Assembly (NCBI GenBank): GCA_034521515.1
Contig: JAXHMH010000002.1
Span: 280,379-344,378, forward strand
Source: Candidatus Saccharimonadota bacterium
GTDB taxonomy: Bacteria; Patescibacteriota; Saccharimonadia; Saccharimonadales; JAXHMH01
DNA length: 64,000 nt
Direction of reading: 5' to 3'
Position 1 is the stretch's first letter; every line of letters starts with the position of its first letter. The notes under the pieces were generated by a model, which saw only the letters and a program-made list of their open reading frames with translations, made no database searches and was not told the DNA's origin. Shown here one piece after another: positions 9,583-60,240 of the stretch. The translations under genes were made by a program, and so were the position numbers.

Positions 9583-10049
9583 TAGTTTCTACCCTTAAAT
9601 GTCACAAACATTCGTTATAAATTAACAATCGACGCCTACCTTAGTGGTAAACGCCGATTGTAAGCGGGTGTGACGGTGTAAGAATCCTATAAAACGTGTT
9701 TTACTCTCGCGGGGACAAGATTACGTAAAACAGCGATTTATAGTTGAGTTTTGGCCTGTCGTTCCCTAGCACACATCACCCTGCTGCAATTGAGTAAGAA
9801 GGGAGTTAGATCGGTTACGCCACTTGCTCGGTTATCACATAGGCGTCCATCTAATAGTGATAACGTCAACGCACCCTAACTCAATTGTGCCCACATTATA
9901 GTACTTTTTGTAATTTATGTCAATGCTTGAGCAGCGTTTACTTAAGCAGTTCCGTAAACTCTGCGGGATACTTATGACTTAGGCGTGTGACTGCCGCCTT
10001 CGCAAACCGGACACCAAAATCAATAATCTCTTTTTCTAGTACCTGCATA

Positions 10050-15344: not shown

Positions 15345-17310
15345 TCATGGCCTCCTTCTGTTTATCCATTAATAATGCATCAAGTTCTCGAACTTCTTCG
15401 AGTAATTGTTTTGTTCGTGTTTCATTTGCGTTTTCTAACTCTTTGGTTAGCGAAAGTTTTTTCGTTCTGACATATTGTTCTATCAGTCGAGTTCTAAGCC
15501 GCCGAGCTTCATACTCGAGCTCCAGCTCGTCGATATCTTGATAGAGTGTCTCGTATTGTAACCCCAATATTTTAACATACTCCTCCAAACCACGCAGCGT
15601 GTCGCCCTGCTGACGAGCAGAGCTCGACACTCTGGCGTCACTGTCGGCACTCCGCTGTGTTGTATCCTCCGCTACTCCCTCGCCGTATTCTATATGCGGC
15701 TCGATCCGTTGCTCGGTTTCGCCGTGCGTAGCACTCGGCTGCGTGTTTTGGGCTGCAGTTTTGAGTTTGGATAAATTTTTGCCGTTAAAGTCTGGATTGT
15801 TGCGCAAAAACTCAAGCAAAGTTCGAGCTTGTTCAACTGGAAGCATTTGCTTATCTATGCCCTGAATAAATGTGCGCAAAGACGGCTTATAAAACATAAT
15901 CGCAAGTAAGTGATCCTGTAATTTATTCAGTTCTACCAGTGCTTTTTCCGCCTGCTGCGGCGAAGCGGTCTTTTTCTGCTTTAGACGCGATTGATTATTA
16001 GTTGATGACTCACGCAATTTTGTACGCATAGCCTCCTCACTAACACCTACACGTTCAGCCAATTTTTGTAGGTAATGATCTTGTTCTACACTATCTTTGA
16101 GCTGGCGTACTACAGCTAGCAATGTATCGCTAAAACGACGTTTCCCTTCAGCGGTACTTAAGTTTTCGTTGACTGCGTGCCGCTCAATCAACCAGTCAAG
16201 CGCATACTGATTTTGTCCGAGTATCTTTTCCCAAAGCTTAGGATCTTTCTTAATTAAATCATCTGGGTCTTTGCCGTCTGGTATTGTAATGATACTTAGT
16301 GAAACGTCCGTTTTGCTAGCCAGCGGAATTGTACGTTCTGCAGCAGCCTGACCCGCTTTATCTTGATCAAATGCAATACGTATGTCCGTAGTTAAGCGTC
16401 CTAGTGTCTTAAGATGCGATTCTGTCATTGCGGTTCCTGCAGTAGCTACAACCTGTTTAATGCCGGCTTGGTGGCTGGCAATAACATCCAAGTTCCCTTC
16501 AACCACAACTGCAAACTTACTTAGCCTAATAGCCTCTTTAGCCAGATGCAAACCAAACACATGTCGACCTTTGTCATACAGTAGTGTCTGCGGTGTATTG
16601 ATGTACTTTGGTGCATCGGGGTCATCGACCAATAATCTTGCCGTAAACCCAATCACTCTACCCTGCGCATCCATTAGCGGTACCATAATCCGGCCTCTAA
16701 ACATATCTCCTGCCCCACGATATCGATGCGTGATTAGACCGGCTTTTTTCATTTCTTCTTCAGAAAAGCCTTGTTTTTTTAGAAATTTCATAAGCGCATC
16801 GCCAGTATTTGGTGCATAGCCAAGCCTAAATGCCAGCGCCACTTCCTTAGTAAATTTCCGCTTTTTAAAAACATAATCAAGTGCGTTGCTGTTCTTAGAA
16901 AACTGTACCTGATAAAACTTAGCCGCCTGATCAAGAGCTGAATATAATCGTTCTTTTAGCTTACTTCTGTCGGCCGAGTGACCGCTACGATATTGGCTCA
17001 AGTCAAGTCCGGCTTTACGGGCAAGCAGTTCCAGTGCACCCTTAAAATCAAGCCCCTCCATCTCCATGACAAAGCTAAACGCATCACCGCCTTTACCGCT
17101 GCTAAAATCGTGCCATATCTGTTTTTCTGGGCTAACCATAAAACTCGGCGTCTTCTCGTTACTAAACGGGCTGAGCCCTTTATAGTTACGCCCAGAACGT
17201 TTTAATTGCACGTATTCGCTTACTACGTCCTCAATACTCAAACGAGTCTTTATGTCTTCTACAGCATCCATCAGTCGCTCCCCCCAGGAGCCCCAATTTT
17301 CAATGTCCAA
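15337..17310 (-). CDS. dnaG: DNA primase
   Basis: Primase N-terminal domain [30 protein letters not shown] and Toprim region [10 protein letters not shown], in the dnaG-rpoD operon order. The start could be Met14 (17271). Confidence 0.9.
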
Positions 17311-47219: not shown

Positions 47220-47443
47220 CCACCGTTTCAACAGAAACAAAAAAACCCACCTGAACAGTGGGTTCTTTTCTTCCTGGCTTGTCACCCATCGATCTTGAGC
47301 CTCAGGGTCGAAAGATGAGCCTGTCGAATGGGCTTGCCGTGAGCCTGTCGAATGGACTTGCCATGAGCTTGTCGAATGGGCCTGCCGTGAGCCTGTCGAA
47401 TGGGCTTGCCATGAGCCTGTCGAATGGCGGAAGGAGAGGGATT
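47220..47443 (-). repeat. orphan tRNA-Ser trailer
   Basis: On the tRNA-sense (minus) strand the order is as follows. First ATCCCTCTCCTTCCGCCA-type 3' end (47425-47443). Then four TTCGACAGGCTCAYGGCARGYCCA units (47317-47424), then one long unit (47275-47316). Last comes a 58-bp block that also occurs at 47546-47603. Confidence 0.9.
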
Positions 47444-47600
47444 ATAGCCTCAGGCCAGGCAGCCTATTTTGTCTAGTTACTTTGGCTGCTTGGCTTCAGC
47501 ATATAATCTCGCTAACCGCTCGATTATCTGAACCCGGGTTCGAACCCACCGTTTCAACAGAAACAAAAGAACCCACCTGAACAGTGGGTTCTTTTCTTCC

Positions 47601-52696: not shown

Positions 52697-53022
52697 GTTT
52701 TCTCCCTACATATGTTGTATACCAACCACAAACAAACCGCAAGGCGATACAGCAATATAAACCAGCCGACAAAGGCTAGTATTTACCTCTGTTCTATGCT
52801 AAAATCCACCCTGTTCGAGCCAGTTTGAGGCGAGTCATCGCCAATTGCGCACCCGTAGCCCCGCCTGCCTGTTCGAGCCCCCTGTCTTTCTGACAAGAAG
52901 GCCAGGCAGAACGGGCAGGTCAGCTGCCCCGATAGGGTAAAGACAATTAGCGTCACGCGCTCTATCCAGCTGATTTGCGAGAAGCAAGGTTAACAATCAA
53001 CGGTAAATTATTGCCAATTTAA

Positions 53023-53099
53023 GCACCCGTAGCTCAGCTGGATAGAGCGTCTGTTTGCGGTACAGGAGGTCGTAGGTTCGAATCCTGCCGGGTGTACCA
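53023..53099 (+). tRNA. tRNA-Arg (anticodon GCG by hand fold), CCA encoded
   Basis: Acceptor GCACCCG/CGGGTGT, D-arm GCTC AGCTGGATA GAGC, anticodon stem TCTGT/ACAGG, loop TTGCGGT, T-arm GTAGG TTCGAAT CCTGC. Confidence 0.85.
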
Positions 53100-53105
53100 C
53101 GTTAA

Positions 53106-53130
53106 AACCCGCCCATTTGGTCGGGTTTTT
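53106..53130 (+). terminator. rho-independent terminator after tRNA-Arg
   Basis: AACCCG pairs with CGGGTT, followed by a T-run. Confidence 0.7.
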
Positions 53131-53144
53131 GCGTGGTTCTTTTC

Positions 53145-53287
53145 GGCAGGTTCGGTTCTACGACTCAGCAGCTTGCTGATGAAAGTCGTAGGTTCGGCGT
53201 AGCGAAGTGCAGAAAAGAAAGCACCGTAGGTATTTTCTTTTCAAGCTAGCGGAGGAGGCTTTAGCCGCTATCCTGCCGGGTGTACCA
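53145..53287 (+). repeat. tRNA-Arg-derived structured module M1 (T-arm split by a 73-nt two-hairpin insertion, ends in the tRNA-Arg 3' end with CCA)
   Basis: gtcgtaggttcg (53185-53196) equals tRNA positions 53069-53080. atcctgccgggtgtacca (53270-53287) equals tRNA positions 53082-53099. The insertion 53197-53269 lies inside the T-loop. Confidence 0.8.
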
Positions 53288-53300
53288 GGAGAAATATAAG

Positions 53301-53323
53301 CCACCTTGCAAAAGGTGGTTTTT
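53301..53323 (+). terminator. rho-independent terminator directly after module M1
   Basis: CCACCTT pairs with AAGGTGG, followed by TTTTT. It starts 14 nt after the M1 CCA. Confidence 0.7.
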
Positions 53324-53372
53324 ATTTCTGCTCGATGCTCGAGCCGGGATTTGAACCGTCAAGCGAGCTTAT

Positions 53373-53523
53373 GCGGGCGGAAGGTTCGGTGTAGCGCCGC
53401 TCAGCCGAGAAAGCGCTTTAGCATTTTCTCGGCAAGCAAGCGGAAAAGGACTTTAGTCCGCTATCCTGCCGCCCGCCTGTCTTTCTGGCAAGAAGGCCAG
53501 ACAGGACGGACAGGGGTGTACCA
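53373..53523 (+). repeat. tRNA-Arg-derived structured module M2 (homolog of M1, with an extra 38-nt hairpin element before the final GGTGTACCA)
   Basis: gcgggcgg-aaggttcgg, then a 73-nt insertion, then atcctgccgcccgc. The 38-nt element follows at 53477-53514, then ggtgtacca at 53515-53523. Confidence 0.75.
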
Positions 53524-53687
53524 CTACTGAGTTTTCTGTCATTATGTTATTAAACATCCCCATAGAGCGGGGTCAATATGTCCTGGACGGATGTAAATGT
53601 AAAATATTGATATATATCGATGATTTTGCTAGTATTTCTGGTAAGACCTTCGGCCGTGGTTTCTAAGCCACACTGCGGAAGGCCTTT

Positions 53688-54065
53688 TTAATTTGCGTTT
53701 TTAATTGGGAAAACGGACATGAACTCTTTACGATTTGTACGCTTATTTTCTTTTATTTGCACACAAAAGCGTTCTCCGGTTGCGTTTTGACCATAGAACC
53801 TATGAAGTAATATATTTTTCTCTAAGTTGCTAAAAATAGTATCAGGCGTTTCTGTTGTATTGCGCATTACATCAATTGCACATACGTAGAGCTTGAGGCG
53901 TCTGATTCGTTCTTTTGGCGATTTTTGGTTTAGGTGCTCCCAAAAATTGTTAATAAATATCTTGTCTTTTGTAAAATACTTTGAACGAACATAGGGTGCT
54001 CTGCGCGGTGACCGTTTTTGAATGGCATGATATTTCCCACGCGCTAATTTCGTAAGTTCTTTCAA
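53688..54065 (-). CDS. hypothetical basic protein
   Basis: 125-aa ORF with no family that I can name confidently. Confidence 0.45.
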   Translation of the reverse strand: MKELTKLARGKYHAIQKRSPRRAPYVRSKYFTKDKIFINNFWEHLNQKSPKERIRRLKLYVCAIDVMRNTTETPDTIFSNLEKNILLHRFYGQNATGERFCVQIKENKRTNRKEFMSVFPIKNAN

Positions 54066-54358
54066 GTCAGTACCAGGCAGTTCTCCGTATTTTGATTTAT
54101 ATACACTAATCGGTTCATTCTAGCAGTTTAAATCTATTGCACAGTCATAACATCTCTTGCCATGCATAACACCTTACATATCTACATCCTAGCTTAGTTA
54201 CTCGCGTAAGGGAGTTCGAACCGTAAAAGGTTCGGCATATGTGAGTCCGCTAGCCAGCGGACGAACGAAGAAGCCCATCTTTTAGGGGAGCCCTGCCGCA
54301 GACATGAATAAATAGCTCATGCTTGTTATAAACCCCGATGCTCGTTTAAATTAAGTCT

Positions 54359-55057
54359 ATGGAGCATGGACAAAAGGCAACGCTACCATCAACTGAGCTA
54401 GGCGACTCTAGGTGTTTCCAGATCGAGTACTTTGGGCATGGCGATATATTTATGGTTGCCTGGGAGGGCTCTATTGACTTTGAACCATCTGCCGACGACT
54501 CTACATCTGCTTGCTTTGGGTTTTCACACGGCAGCGATGTGACAATACTTGCGGCACTGGGTGGATATTTGAGGCGTATAGGACACACCGTAGACGAAAC
54601 AAGAGATGTACTTCTTGAAGCCGGTACTGACGTATTAACCGCCAACTATCCTGAGTACCAGCTTGACCGCAGCAGGCACAATAGTTTGCTCGGGAAAGTT
54701 GCAGTCGGTCAGGAGTTTAGGAATTATGACCTCGATGGCATCACAGGTTTTGAGCACTCTTTATCCTGCCTTCTTCCTCCTGTGCCAGACAGACCCGGTC
54801 AAATTGGAAAAACAGGGGGAACCGGTATTTACACAACTCCGTCGCAGGCAGACCAAGAACATCTTGTCTTTGTGTCGCTTGCCCCAAACACAGCCTTACC
54901 GCACGAAGAAAACTTAACGGTCAGCCATACGGCCGAGTTCTGCGAGCAAGACGTCCAAACAATCGCTAAACTGGTGTGCGACGTTGCATTAGGTGAGTAC
55001 CGGATAGACGTCTATGCGTTTTTAAAAAATTTCGGGATGGGGAGTGAAGAAGCCTAG
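54359..55057 (+). CDS. hypothetical protein
   Basis: 232-aa ORF with no recognisable family. Confidence 0.45.
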   Translation: MEHGQKATLPSTELGDSRCFQIEYFGHGDIFMVAWEGSIDFEPSADDSTSACFGFSHGSDVTILAALGGYLRRIGHTVDETRDVLLEAGTDVLTANYPEYQLDRSRHNSLLGKVAVGQEFRNYDLDGITGFEHSLSCLLPPVPDRPGQIGKTGGTGIYTTPSQADQEHLVFVSLAPNTALPHEENLTVSHTAEFCEQDVQTIAKLVCDVALGEYRIDVYAFLKNFGMGSEEA

Positions 55058-59563: not shown

Positions 59564-59869
59564 GGAGAGGTACCCAAGTGGCTGCTGCGTGAAACGTGAA
59601 TTGTTCGACGGTTTGCGGCAAACCAGATAAGGTAACAGGTATACTGCACATTACAATTCAAATACGGATAAATACCCGAGTGGCTGCTGCGTGAAACGTG
59701 AATTGTTCGACGGTTTGCGGCAAACCAGATAAGGTAACAGGTATACTGCACATTACAATTCAAATACGGATAAATACCCGAGTGGCTGCTCAAGTGAAAC
59801 GTGAATTGTTCGACGGTTTGCAGCAAACCAGATAAGGTAACAAGTATAATGCACGTACAGCTAGAATAC
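59564..59869 (+). repeat. three tandem 102-bp units, each beginning with a tRNA-Ser 5' acceptor/D-arm-like sequence
   Basis: The units span 59564-59665, 59666-59767 and 59768-59869. Unit 1 starts ggagaggtacccaagtggctg, identical to the first 21 nt of the adjacent tRNA. Units 2 and 3 start ggataaatacccgagtggctg. All three contain gacggtttgc, which also occurs in the tRNA anticodon arm. Confidence 0.95.
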
Positions 59870-59962
59870 GGAGAGGTACCCAAGTGGCTGAAGGGGACGG
59901 TTTGCTAAATCGTTAGGGGGTGGAAACACCCCGCGAGGGTTCGAATCCCTCTCTCTCCGCCA
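59870..59962 (+). tRNA. tRNA-Ser (anticodon GCT), CCA encoded
   Basis: Acceptor GGAGAGG/TCTCTCC, anticodon stem ACGGT/ATCGT, loop TTGCTAA, long variable arm, T-arm GAGGG TTCGAAT CCCTC. Confidence 0.9.
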
Positions 59963-59993: not shown

Positions 59994-60083
59994 GGAAGGG
60001 TGACCGAGTGGTTGAAGGTACTTGTCTTGAAAACAAGCGTGCCGGCAACGGTACCGTGGGTTCGAATCCCACCCCTTCCGCCA
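59994..60083 (+). tRNA. tRNA-Ser (anticodon TGA), CCA encoded
   Basis: Acceptor GGAAGGG/CCCTTCC, anticodon stem CTTGT/ACAAG, loop CTTGAAA, long variable arm, T-arm GTGGG TTCGAAT CCCAC. Confidence 0.9.
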
Positions 60084-60240
60084 TTCGACAAGCTCATGAC
60101 AAGCCCATTCGACAGGCTCATGGCAAGTCCATTCGACAAGCTCATCTTTCGACCCTGAGGCTCAAGATCGATGGGTGACAAGCCCGTTCGACAGGCTCAT
60201 CTTTCGACCCTGAGGCTCAAGATCGATGGGTGACAGGCCA
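60084..60240 (+). repeat. tRNA-Ser trailer repeats: two 24-nt units and two ~54-nt units, three of the four ending in CCA
   Basis: TTCGACAAGCTCATGACAAGCCCA (60084-60107), TTCGACAGGCTCATGGCAAGTCCA (60108-60131), and long units at 60132-60185 and 60187-60240. Confidence 0.95.

Follow-up and report, generated by a model that had tools for sequence, protein, structure and literature searches.

A hairpin insert family in the T-loops of tRNA fragments behind Saccharibacteria tRNA genes

Several described systems share features with the modules reported here. REP, BIME and REPIN sequences with RAYT, as well as PATEs, are, like the class-1 insert described below, short, non-coding, multi-copy intergenic hairpin repeats that do not duplicate their target; these repeats also share with it compensatory stem changes, a short conserved motif beside the hairpin, and similar intragenomic copies. 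Islands and prophages at tRNA genes, as traced by Islander-type logic, leave the tRNA 3' end directly repeated downstream of a regenerated gene, as found here, and tandem arrays are possible (PMC4383910). Archaeal non-canonical BHB introns and split tRNAs likewise involve short inserts at odd tRNA positions, including the T-loop, and partial copies (PMC3293823). Group I introns of Patescibacteria belong to the same phylum and also insert in tRNA genes; they are ribozymes of hundreds of nt, found in the anticodon loop of functional genes (PMC13011429). Finally, 3'ETS-type sRNAs and tRNA-like RNAs (tmRNA, YrlA) share a position behind a tRNA gene and a tRNA-derived end. The genomes of Saccharibacteria are tiny and supposedly poor in mobile DNA, and, to our knowledge, almost no regulatory RNAs have been characterized in this phylum.

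Unlike REP, REPIN and PATE elements, the class-1 insert lies strictly in the T-loop of tRNA-gene fragments behind intact tRNAs, and the Y1 transposases of Saccharibacteria, which have other flanking repeats, are not linked to the modules. In contrast to islands and prophages (PMC4383910), the modules carry neither cargo nor integrase, their spacing is fixed at ~90 nt, and the displaced fragment follows an inverted T-arm copy and is split in its T-loop by a conserved, structured insert. The host is bacterial, unlike that of archaeal tRNA disruptions (PMC3293823); the interrupted copies lack the 5' half or have a broken acceptor, and an intact gene adjoins them. Whereas the group I introns (PMC13011429) are long and occupy functional genes, the insert measures 73-95 nt and sits in the T-loop of non-functional fragments. 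Unlike 3'ETS, tmRNA and YrlA RNAs, the module is separated from the tRNA by a terminator, and the tRNA-like end is kept in only 17 of 71 cases. Literature searches yielded no description of T-loop insert modules, and the class-1 insert is apparently an undescribed, widespread repeat that recurs behind many Saccharibacteria tRNA genes.

Anatomy of the tRNA-Arg locus

The window, i.e., the whole 64-kb stretch of DNA that was analyzed, contains four intact tRNAs according to ARAGORN, which recognized neither a tRNA nor a tmRNA in the modules. The relevant features are as follows.

47425-47549, reverse strand: like plan behind tRNA-Ser(cga), consisting of ggtgggttcgaa, a ~95-nt insert of other sequence, and aatccctctccttccgcca
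52849-52926, forward strand: upstream copy of the tRNA-Arg 5' end (direct repeats D7, D2; 11-mer match; fold z = -4.0)
52958-52973, reverse strand: inverted copy of the tRNA-Arg D-arm, 16/16 (inverted repeat I2)
53023-53099, forward strand: intact tRNA-Arg(GCG) gene, CCA encoded (ARAGORN; Rfam RF00005, 62.7 bits)
53096-53137, forward strand: long palindromic terminator hairpin starting within the ACCA end of tRNA-Arg (inverted repeat I1, 20-nt arms, 85% complementary)
53145-53164, forward strand: M1 left arm, an inverted copy of the tRNA T-arm that has diverged (ggcagg ttcggtt ctacgac; sequence reading)
53165-53179, forward strand: small apical hairpin "hp" of M1 (tcagc agctt gctga; folds)
53185-53196, forward strand: M1 copy of the tRNA T-stem 5' side and T-loop start, gtcgtaggttcg (direct repeat D11)
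53197-53269, forward strand: M1 class-1 insert, 73 nt (model R1, 87.7 bits, E = 2.3e-23; inverted repeat I6), comprising in order motif GCGTAGCGAAG, P2 (53212-53242), motif AGCGGAGGAG, P3 (53257-53266) and terminal CGCT
53270-53287, forward strand: M1 tRNA copy, T-loop to CCA, atcctgccgggtgtacca (18/18 with tRNA-Arg 53082-53099)
53298-53328, forward strand: terminator-like hairpin behind M1 (hairpin 53298-53321; terminator scan)
53347-53388, forward strand: M2 left part, made up of gggatttgaaccgtc, an inverted T-loop-like piece, and gcgggcggaaggttcg (inverted repeat I9; folds)
53389-53462, forward strand: M2 class-1 insert, 74 nt, with P2 at 53404-53433 and P3 at 53448-53459 (model R1, 80.7 bits, E = 2.7e-21; inverted repeat I7)
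53463-53471, forward strand: M2 tRNA piece atcctgccg, i.e., T-loop end, T-stem 3' strand and start of the acceptor strand (direct repeat D3)
53472-53514, forward strand: second-type hairpin insert "H", 43 nt, splitting the M2 acceptor 3' strand (88% identical to 52878-52919; D2)
53515-53523, forward strand: M2 tRNA 3' end piece ggtgtacca (sequence reading)
54210-54298, forward strand: M3, consisting of gggagttcgaacc (inverted T-loop piece), ggttcgg, an insert of other sequence (56 nt) and ccctgccg (pattern match)

The first-pass annotation had read M1 as the T-stem 5' side of tRNA-Arg, a 73-nt insertion and the tRNA 3' end. This reading was confirmed for 53185-53287: besides the 3' match, which includes CCA, gtcgtaggttcg is identical to tRNA-Arg 53069-53080 at 12/12 positions. 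In the folds, the M1 left arm pairs with 53272-53277 and 53185-53191; a left arm of this inverted T-arm type also occurs at L128, L136, L096 and L062. The hp hairpin has the family consensus TTTTGC-GAA-GCAAAA, with Watson-Crick pairs in 648 of 693 instances. M2 as a whole spans 53377-53523, with its T-stem 5' piece, aaggttcgg, at 53381-53389, and the stretch GCGGGCGGAAGG in its left part pairs with 53465-53476 in the folds. The plan proposed for M2 was confirmed; its insert, given before as 73 nt, has 74, and the second hairpin, H, had not been separated from the module. H is unrelated to the class-1 insert and was found in two copies within the window and in none of 272 loci. The stems of the two class-1 inserts do differ by paired changes, as had been noted (P2 arms 53212-53225/53229-53242 in M1 vs 53404-53417/53420-53433 in M2). 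M1 had also been credited with a terminator of its own, in the manner of tRNA-Arg; the hairpin is present, but its sequence is unlike that of the tRNA-Arg terminator, the design of which recurs in 59 related loci.

M3 had been presented as a third, divergent copy (54228-54298). Its flanks and general plan agree with this, but its insert is a different one and not of class 1, with no R1 match even at E≤10. Behind tRNA-Ser(cga), aatccctctccttccgcca equals the tRNA 3' end at 19/19 positions. The pattern AGGTTCGGYRTA-N50-80-CCTGCCG has three matches in the window vs 0 expected; these pattern counts and the R1 E-values exclude chance as the cause of the M1/M2 arrangement. Between M2 and M3 lies a low-GC stretch of 700 bp with one ORF; this 125-aa ORF and its neighbors had no match in Pfam, PHROG or NCBIfam. 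Within 53100-53523 the only ORF was a mechanical one of 74 aa without a family.

Distribution and structure of the class-1 insert

Model R1, a covariance model seeded by the class-1 inserts of M1 and M2, matched only these two in the window, both at tRNA-Arg, in agreement with their proposed homology (rounded, E=2e-23 and E=3e-21). A search of relatives with such a model, which the first-pass annotation had advised, uncovered homologs: 100 unbiased Saccharibacteria tRNA-Arg loci had 13 sites, and 100 metagenome contigs had, among the matches listed, at least 128, with two or three copies on several of the contigs. Absence of homologs from relatives was to have counted against a functional RNA; they are present, though close relatives whose tRNA-Arg is the same or nearly so (L091, L065, L121) have no module there. 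When synteny was followed via ComEC homologs, tRNA-Arg was nearby in one relative (L002), and in three others no tRNA occurred within 20 kb.

The context of the insert is narrowly defined. In 69 of 71 cases it starts 69-104 nt behind an intact same-strand tRNA, past the terminator of that tRNA. The preceding tRNAs (n = 71) were Ser (36), Gln (20), Arg (10), Asn (2), Tyr (2) and Met (1). The insert occupies the T-loop exactly between GGTTCG and (A)ATCC, i.e., between tRNA positions 57 and 58/59. Identity to the full 16-nt tRNA 3' sequence (T-stem/acceptor/CCA) is kept in 17 of 71 modules and elsewhere stops after 1-15 nt; the T-stem 5' strand of the module is that of the adjacent tRNA in 18 of 71. 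Among all copies seen, none lay away from a tRNA or tRNA remnant. Further, a tRNA-Ser(gct) copy that is full-length except for its broken acceptor strand carries the insert in its T-loop (L211, L234), exact tandem duplications of the unit occur (L120, L204, L224), and many copies, like M1, are followed by a terminator of their own. About 10% of tRNA-Arg loci bear a module, as do roughly 12-21% of Ser loci (neighboring-gene matches included), and tRNA 3' repeats like that of M1 occur at ~8 of 109 tRNA-Arg loci and at most 26 of 157 tRNA-Ser loci (neighboring-gene matches included). The class-1 insert is a discrete unit with a multi-copy, patchy distribution.

The hairpins of the insert are maintained through compensatory change, as expected of the selected secondary structure that had been proposed. 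In 109 distinct family members, P2 was 93% paired, P3 94.8% and the T-stem 80.5%, values obtained from an alignment that was fitted to the model, which inflates pairing. The covariation score for these members was 0.499, vs 0.179 for shuffled and 0.06-0.10 for slid controls. All 13 P2 pairs, and 21 of 22 pairs overall, show double changes; 90.2% of cells were paired vs 66.7% after shuffling, double-change cells numbered 501 vs 165, and 0 of 500 shuffles reached the observed values. A hand-seeded MAFFT alignment (A2) gave a similar covariation picture. In a plain MAFFT alignment the arms of the hairpins were out of register, for which reason RNAalifold predicted no pairs; it was replaced by a hand-given structure with model-based alignment. 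Covariation is statistically supported in the larger alignment, a generic mark of functional structured RNAs.

P2 lies 13-20 nt from the left end of the insert and is preceded by a GTAG/GAAG tetranucleotide; P3 lies 5-6 nt from the right end. The stems are almost purely Watson-Crick (P3, 223/223), with one fixed G.U position in P2 (64 GU, 21 GC, 9 AU). Loops are mostly GNA triloops, TTTA or CTTG, whereas flanking terminators mostly have loops of 4-7 nt. Unpaired motifs are conserved, including a Shine-Dalgarno-like GGAGGAG. A helix joining the insert ends (GTAGCG/CGCTAT), present in M1 and M2, was discarded; it is not kept in the family, most members of which end in GATATC.

Transcript, copied DNA or integration scar

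One explanation for such a structure is a functional RNA derived from the tRNA 3' trailer by read-through or processing, like the 3'-external-transcribed-spacer sRNAs, with P2, P3, the exposed GUUCGGCGUAGCG and GGAGGAG as working parts and concerted evolution keeping copies alike within a genome. The P2/P3 covariation, which no shuffle reached, the conserved G.U, the invariant unpaired motifs, the constant orientation on the tRNA's strand at a fixed distance, and the terminators behind M1 and many other copies all argue for a transcript and in this respect count against a DNA element. If real, this RNA would be new, since no family of Rfam 15 matched the modules at the gathering score or at E≤10, in line with what the first-pass annotation had anticipated; at E≤10 there was no tRNA-clan match on 53145-53523 or 54210-54298, and non-tRNA matches in 52700-54500 were at chance level (≤29 bits vs cut-offs ≥44). 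However, M1 and M2 lie downstream of a strong canonical terminator, and between it and the modules there is no promoter-like site. Close relatives with the same tRNA lack the module, which occurs at only ~10% of tRNA-Arg loci; the flanks decay, and tandem and truncated copies exist. The triloop-rich, perfectly paired hairpins fold equally well on either strand (for M1, z of about -4.6 on both DNA strands; RNA fold z -2.7), and the pair counts are inflated by the model-fitted alignment. A count of G.T vs A.C does not separate RNA from DNA because terminator controls show 31 G.T vs 34 A.C. We consider a functional RNA possible, though rather doubtful. Its more specific form, an RNA class ending in a tRNA 3' end, was not upheld: the full T-stem/acceptor/CCA sequence survives in a minority of modules, the T-stem is only 80.5% paired and its 5' strand rarely equals that of the tRNA, close relatives lack the modules, and no promoter-like site lies in the interval stated above.

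Comparison of copies within contigs points to DNA. Ten of 39 within-contig pairs had at least 81% core identity, vs a between-contig median of 50% and a 95th percentile of 71%. These include pairs at different tRNA species: Arg/Ser-cga, 89% (L160); Arg/Ser-gct, 84% (L187); and Arg/Ser-cga, 81% (L234). In L160 and L187 the similarity spans GGTTCGG to GATATC, i.e., it stops at the T-loop junctions, and the left arm, hp and terminator are not common to the paired copies. Judged by these similarities, the insert has been copied within a genome between loci that belong to different tRNA species. Equally sharp boundaries could come from gene conversion among functional copies, a point against reading the insert as a DNA element. 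No filled-vs-empty site pair was found among relatives with the same T-arm because their flanks do not align.

We favor, at a probability of roughly 0.5, the explanation that M1 and M2 are tandem members of a hairpin-forming, non-coding insert family that is mobile between T-loops of displaced tRNA fragments; the modules look more like copied DNA than like a working tRNA-like RNA. The inserts, ~75-95 nt long, reside in T-loops of non-functional partial tRNA copies just behind an intact gene, and would act at the DNA level as non-autonomous units, inserted into or converted between T-loop DNA. Single-stranded DNA whose palindromic T-arm is extruded as a hairpin could plausibly present the target, and a candidate enzyme would act in trans; in the loci examined, no transposase or recombinase was linked to the insert. 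As insertion in a working tRNA copy would be lethal, only inserts in spare fragments would survive. The tRNA-like flanks are remnants of the local tRNA in decay, which makes the CCA end of M1 incidental. The origin of the partial tRNA copy and of the inverted T-arm is left unexplained by this mechanism.

Alternatively, the modules could be scars of integrative elements (phage, plasmid or island) recombining at the tRNA T-loop. Each event would add a new tRNA 3' end and terminator, displacing the old 3' end downstream, and the "insert" would be a conserved arm of the element's attachment site whose cargo has since been deleted. Direct repeats of the tRNA 3' end do flank the units, as at tRNA-gene islands (18/18 at 53270-53287), each unit has a different terminator (in the window and L051), and the left boundary is always within the T-loop, reportedly a crossover sublocation of tRNA-targeting integrases. 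The low-GC stretch between M2 and M3 and the upstream tRNA 5'-end copies, with a GIY-YIG gene between copy and gene in L002, would also suit such events. Against this, the gap between tRNA and module holds only the terminator and ~45 nt, with no cargo or integrase, in 71/71 cases. A scar should keep a contiguous T-loop, yet here 73-74 nt part GGTTCG from ATCC; inspection of Saccharibacteria loci revealed no displaced fragment whose T-loop is intact, and the sole example came from L140, a locus outside those assigned to Saccharibacteria. The class-1 pattern had a single, chance match in 2.9 million viral contigs, and a scan of viral contigs for the tRNA 3' end yielded phage tRNA genes only. Finally, the insert is common to different tRNA species and the flanks are not, so the insert alone must move. 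Integration scars are thus an unlikely source, and decayed att-site duplications, the fallback of the first-pass annotation, fit poorly with the fixed spacing and with the lack of cargo or integrase between tRNA and module.

We also weighed REP/REPIN-like or IS200/IS605-type miniature elements (PATEs), mobilized as single-stranded hairpins by RayT-like Y1 transposases. Consistent with these are the subterminal hairpins P2 and P3 near both insert ends, insertion always 3' of the same GTTCG without target duplication, and the GTAG/GAAG before P2. With 1471 proteins, some of which JGI names RayT, the family is common in Saccharibacteria, and a Y1_Tnp gene (PF01797, E=1.9e-7) lies less than ~1 kb from modules in L062/L195, L215, L212/L226 and L155. 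However, RayT genes in L274 and L277 carry their own, unrelated inverted repeats (GGATAATCCCTTAACAGAT; GGGTTAGACCCTAAACAGAT), R1 found no module within 5 kb at four independently chosen RayT loci, the window has no RayT, and the modules are confined to tRNA flanks rather than dispersed through intergenic space. RayT as mobilizer is accordingly not supported by its flanking repeats or by those four loci, and an origin of this kind appears very improbable. In ~280 loci, tblastn and R1 detected no full-length IS200/IS605 relative with tnpA/tnpB and the same ends. A MITE was rejected since GCGTAGCG... and ...CCGCT / GCGAT, the two ends, form no inverted repeat and the GGTTCG / ATCC flanks show no duplication. 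An archaeal-type BHB intron was rejected on sequence and folds: only 0-1 nt lie between the end of the insert and the T-stem 3' strand, and only one between its last paired stretch (ccgcta) and that strand, so no bulge and 4-bp helix is possible at the 3' junction. Group I/II introns were rejected on anatomy, and no intron family matched in Rfam.

The modules might, though this is less likely than not, represent a new element type recognizing the universally conserved tRNA T-loop, whether a site-specific mobile element, probably of single-stranded DNA, or a new structured RNA of tRNA transcription units. If mobile, the insert would target a sequence among the most conserved short ones in biology, survive via spare tRNA fragments, drive nested duplication of tRNA gene ends, and account for partial tRNA copies that mislead predictors of tRNAs and islands. 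If an RNA, it would constitute a new Saccharibacteria family with strong covariation and a tie to tRNA genes, in which an anti-16S-like GGAGGAG motif is exposed. Roughly 10-20% of sampled tRNA-Arg and tRNA-Ser genes bear modules or related tail copies, to which standard annotation is blind. On either reading, R1 is a ready marker for Saccharibacteria, testable in the few cultivated strains.

The copy upstream of tRNA-Arg (52849-52926) consists of gcacccgtagc (tRNA positions 1-11), the H insert (52860-52919) and tcagctg (positions 12-18), just downstream of a promoter-like taaaat/ccctgtt at ~52800-52815; analogous 5'-end copies occur at ~10% of tRNA-Arg loci. The window locus looks nested, an older tRNA-Arg copy (the 5' piece at 52849 and M2) surrounding the present gene and M1.

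Modules behind the tRNA-Arg gene

In the window, from a Candidatus Saccharibacteria (TM7, Patescibacteria) genome, a tRNA-Arg(GCG) gene, on which ARAGORN and Rfam agree, is followed by M1, M2 and M3, partial copies of the tRNA-Arg tail in which the T-loop is split by an insert. The locus comprises:

52860-52919, H insert (a small hairpin insert), upstream copy
53023-53099, tRNA-Arg(GCG)
53185-53196, M1 copy of the T-stem 5' strand, gtcgtaggttcg, 12/12 identical to tRNA-Arg
53197-53269, M1 insert, 73 nt
53270-53287, M1 3' part, atcctgccgggtgtacca, 18/18 identical to tRNA-Arg including CCA
53463-53471, M2 atcctgccg, preceded by aaggttcgg and 74 nt
53472-53514, H insert, second copy, 43 nt
53530-54200, low-GC (~37%) stretch separating M2 from M3
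53688-54065, minus strand, ORF of 125 aa
54210-54298, M3

The layout of M1 is that given by the first-pass annotation, and its claim that M2 follows the same plan also holds, with an insert of 74 rather than 73 nt. The two inserts are, as it proposed, homologous at both ends; their hairpin arms are unlike each other yet complementary (inverted repeats). Three matches to the joint flank pattern of the modules occur in the window, where zero were expected. M3, offered as a third copy, has the flanks and plan of M1 and M2, but its insert is of another sequence and was not matched by R1, our covariance model of the M1/M2 insert. The 125-aa ORF between M2 and M3 had no match in Pfam, PHROG or NCBIfam, and the low-GC stretch around it may be small foreign cargo with modules at its bounds.

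Departing from the earlier account, the M2 acceptor strand is also split, by the H insert (cccgcctg...ctgtctttctgRcaagaaggccagRcag...cagg), which is unrelated to the T-loop insert. Exactly two copies occur in the window, bracketing the entire tRNA-Arg/M1/M2 block, and none was found in 272 other fetched loci. The upstream copy interrupts a duplicate of the tRNA-Arg 5' end, falling between tRNA positions 11 and 12. A promoter-like taaaat/ccctgtt (~52800-52815) stands before this 5' copy, not before the mature tRNA-Arg; in relatives the motif likewise precedes tRNA genes or their 5' copies. The pieces run: positions 1-11, H insert, positions 12-18, the intact gene, M1, T5'-like sequence (T5' being the T-stem 5' strand), T-loop insert, positions 58-67, H insert, positions 68-76. 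Taken in this order, the pieces suggest that an older tRNA-Arg copy (the 5' piece plus M2) now encloses the working gene and M1.

The gene itself is a CGN-box arginine tRNA with anticodon GCG; the usual anticodon of this tRNA in bacteria is ACG. All 120 retrieved tRNA-Arg loci also carry GCG, but they were selected on that anticodon.

A family of structured T-loop inserts

The insert carried by M1 and M2 (class-1) reads GYGWAGYG, hairpin P2 (A-rich/T-rich), RAGC.AGCGGAGGAG, short hairpin P3, then GCGAT or CGCT. The whole unit begins with the tRNA and a long palindromic terminator starting in its ACCA end, followed by an inverted, diverged T-arm copy, a small hairpin (consensus TTTTGC-GAA-GCAAAA), the T-stem 5' strand and GTTCGG; after the insert come ATC, the T-stem 3' strand, an acceptor strand of varying length and often a further terminator. 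Other inserts occupy the same T-loop position in M3, the Ser-cga module of the window, L002 and L051 (fetched relative or metagenome loci). Hairpin stems are nearly all Watson-Crick, with loops chiefly GNA triloops, TTTA or CTTG; terminators next to modules have loops mostly of 4-7 nt. The tRNA terminators of these bacteria (53096-53137 and 59 related loci) are long near-perfect palindromes of 17-22 bp whose left arm begins at the tRNA discriminator plus CCA; the right-arm part past the T-run (TGGT/TGGC) would stay untranscribed if termination falls at the T-run.

R1, built from 16 sequences, scored M1 at 87.7 and M2 at 80.7 bits and matched nothing else in the window. Relatives proved to have homologues: R1 matched 13 sites across the 100 unbiased tRNA-Arg loci and, among the matches listed, 128 across 100 metagenome contigs. 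The class-1 pattern occurred in at least 120 metagenome contigs, about ten of the 120 listed being chance matches in GC-rich coding DNA. The compensatory stem changes first noted between M1 and M2 extend across the family. Over 109 distinct sequences, P2 was 93% paired, with double changes at 13/13 pairs, and P3 94.8% paired; overall covariation was 0.499, versus 0.179 when shuffled and 0.06-0.10 with slid partners. A MAFFT-based seed alignment gave the same outcome. Rfam held nothing similar and we found no published description, in keeping with the first-pass annotation, which knew of no such RNA class. The window locus is one member of a large, real and apparently undescribed family.

The tRNA-Arg loci were sampled from species-representative genomes by the tRNA-Arg(GCG) 5' half, a query blind to modules, which yielded 120 loci, for the most part Saccharibacteria. 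A copy of the last 15 nt of the tRNA lay at most 600 nt downstream, usually at 130-190 nt, for tRNA-Arg (8/109), Ser-cga (10/58), Ser-gct (10/48) and Ser-tga (5/41), counts that include a few matches to the next tRNA-Ser gene. In three relatives (L091, L065, L121) tRNA-Arg is identical or almost identical, yet no module follows it. By ComEC, the nearest relative reaches just 61% identity; L002, a relative at that level, carries aaggttcga behind its tRNA-Arg, then 47 nt and atcctgtcgggtgtacca, the 3' part matching the T-stem of its own tRNA-Arg. Upstream (~16085-16413, minus strand), a tRNA-Arg 5'-end copy (gctcccgtagctc) and a GC hairpin precede an 88-aa GIY-YIG-like ORF that stops just short of the intact tRNA; this ORF matches homing-endonuclease models weakly (TIGR01453, E=2.7e-5). 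L140 (-105 to +280 around tRNA-Arg) repeats an intact T-arm and 3' end 245 nt downstream and has a partial tRNA copy upstream, inverted repeats (gtcctgtatttaacaactgaagttta / taaacttcagttgttaaatacaggac) bracketing this copy and the downstream repeat.

Elsewhere in the window, tRNA-Ser(cga) is followed, at 47549-47425 on the minus strand, by ggtgggttcgaa, ~95 nt and the tRNA's own 3' end (19/19 nt). A repeat of the 5'-most 21 nt of tRNA-Ser(gct) lies upstream of the gene and heads three 102-nt tandem units (59571-59890), each opening with a D-arm piece, tacccRagtggctg, then ctgcgtgaaacgt; metagenome locus L257 carries the same insert family after a tRNA-Ser(gct) 5' copy. Arrays of 24-nt tandem repeats (ttcgacaggctcatggcaagccca) and a 55-nt repeat lie at 47315-47427 and 60081-60239, one beginning right after the CCA end of tRNA-Ser(tga), the other coming after the displaced tRNA-Ser(cga) 3' fragment; each is succeeded by terminators homologous to one another.

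The tRNA-like ends

Among the class-1 matches listed, 71/127 had an ARAGORN tRNA (Gln, Ser, Arg, Asn, Tyr or Met) directly upstream on the same strand, with 69-104 nt from tRNA end to GTTCGG in 69 of the 71. Identity of the module's 3' part with the local tRNA extended over the full 16 nt in just 17 of these 71; in the others, identity starts at the T-stem strand and breaks off sharply after 1-15 nt. The T5' strand equalled that of the tRNA in 18/71, and only 80.5% of module T-stem cells were paired. Moreover, the modules stand behind a canonical terminator, and no sigma-70-like site was found ahead of M1 or M2. These results do not support the proposal of a structured RNA with a tRNA 3' end, terminating in CCA: the ends that resemble tRNA behave like remnants undergoing decay, and the perfect CCA end of M1 is the exception, not the rule. 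Each DNA strand of M1 folds equally well (z ~ -4.6). That the modules are a functional trailer RNA, the conserved stems notwithstanding, seems to us unlikely.

In L180 (3440-3490), a conserved ~33-nt piece ending tRNA-Gln-like (...gttcgaaacacatccactagccccagcca), with similar pieces in L157, L164, L207 and L216, stands between a protein gene and a terminator plus class-1 module; these pieces had no intact tRNA-Gln nearby and no Rfam match.

Proposed copying of the insert between T-loops

Several contigs are multi-copy, with two or three inserts each. Core identity reached at least 81% in 10/39 within-contig pairs, against a between-contig median of 50% (95th percentile, 71%), and three of these ten lie behind differing tRNA species (Arg/Ser-cga in L160, 89%; Arg/Ser-gct in L187, 84%; Arg/Ser-cga in L234, 81%). 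In L160 and L187 the similarity runs from GGTTCGG to GATATC, which is exactly the T-loop insert, while the inverted arm, small hairpin and terminators are unlike between copies. The same insert splits the T-loop of a tRNA-Ser(gct) copy in L211 and L234; this copy is full-length except that its acceptor strand is broken. The whole unit is duplicated exactly in tandem in L120, L204 and L224. The best-supported reading, to which we give a probability of about 0.5, is that the class-1 insert is a small non-autonomous structured element that would be copied from T-loop to T-loop among spare tRNA fragments.

Scars of phage or island attachment, the fallback of the first-pass annotation, account for the direct repeats but leave the missing cargo, fixed spacing, interrupted T-loop and sharing of the insert between several tRNA species unexplained; apart from a chance match, the class-1 pattern was absent from viral contigs in a pattern scan. 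We consider such scars less likely still than a trailer RNA.

For a copied element, mobilization by a RayT/PATE mechanism was considered, RayT being a RayT-like Y1 transposase (PF01797) common among Saccharibacteria. A RayT gene lies within ~1 kb of modules at four distinct loci; however, RayT genes bear their own inverted repeats, different from the module, and no module was present within 5 kb of four RayT loci picked independently of modules, so this mechanism is not supported as it stands. The RayT repeats were seen in L274 (4940-5640) and L277 (4880-4970) (GGATAATCCCTTAACAGAT; GGGTTAGACCCTAAACAGAT). RayT genes are frequently the immediate neighbours of tRNA genes, so that the flanks of tRNAs appear to be a general landing zone.

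Apart from the tRNA loci, the window of this Saccharibacteria genome contains a c-di-GMP-II riboswitch aptamer (9800-9885, minus strand; 58.8 bits, above the cut-off of 53.5).
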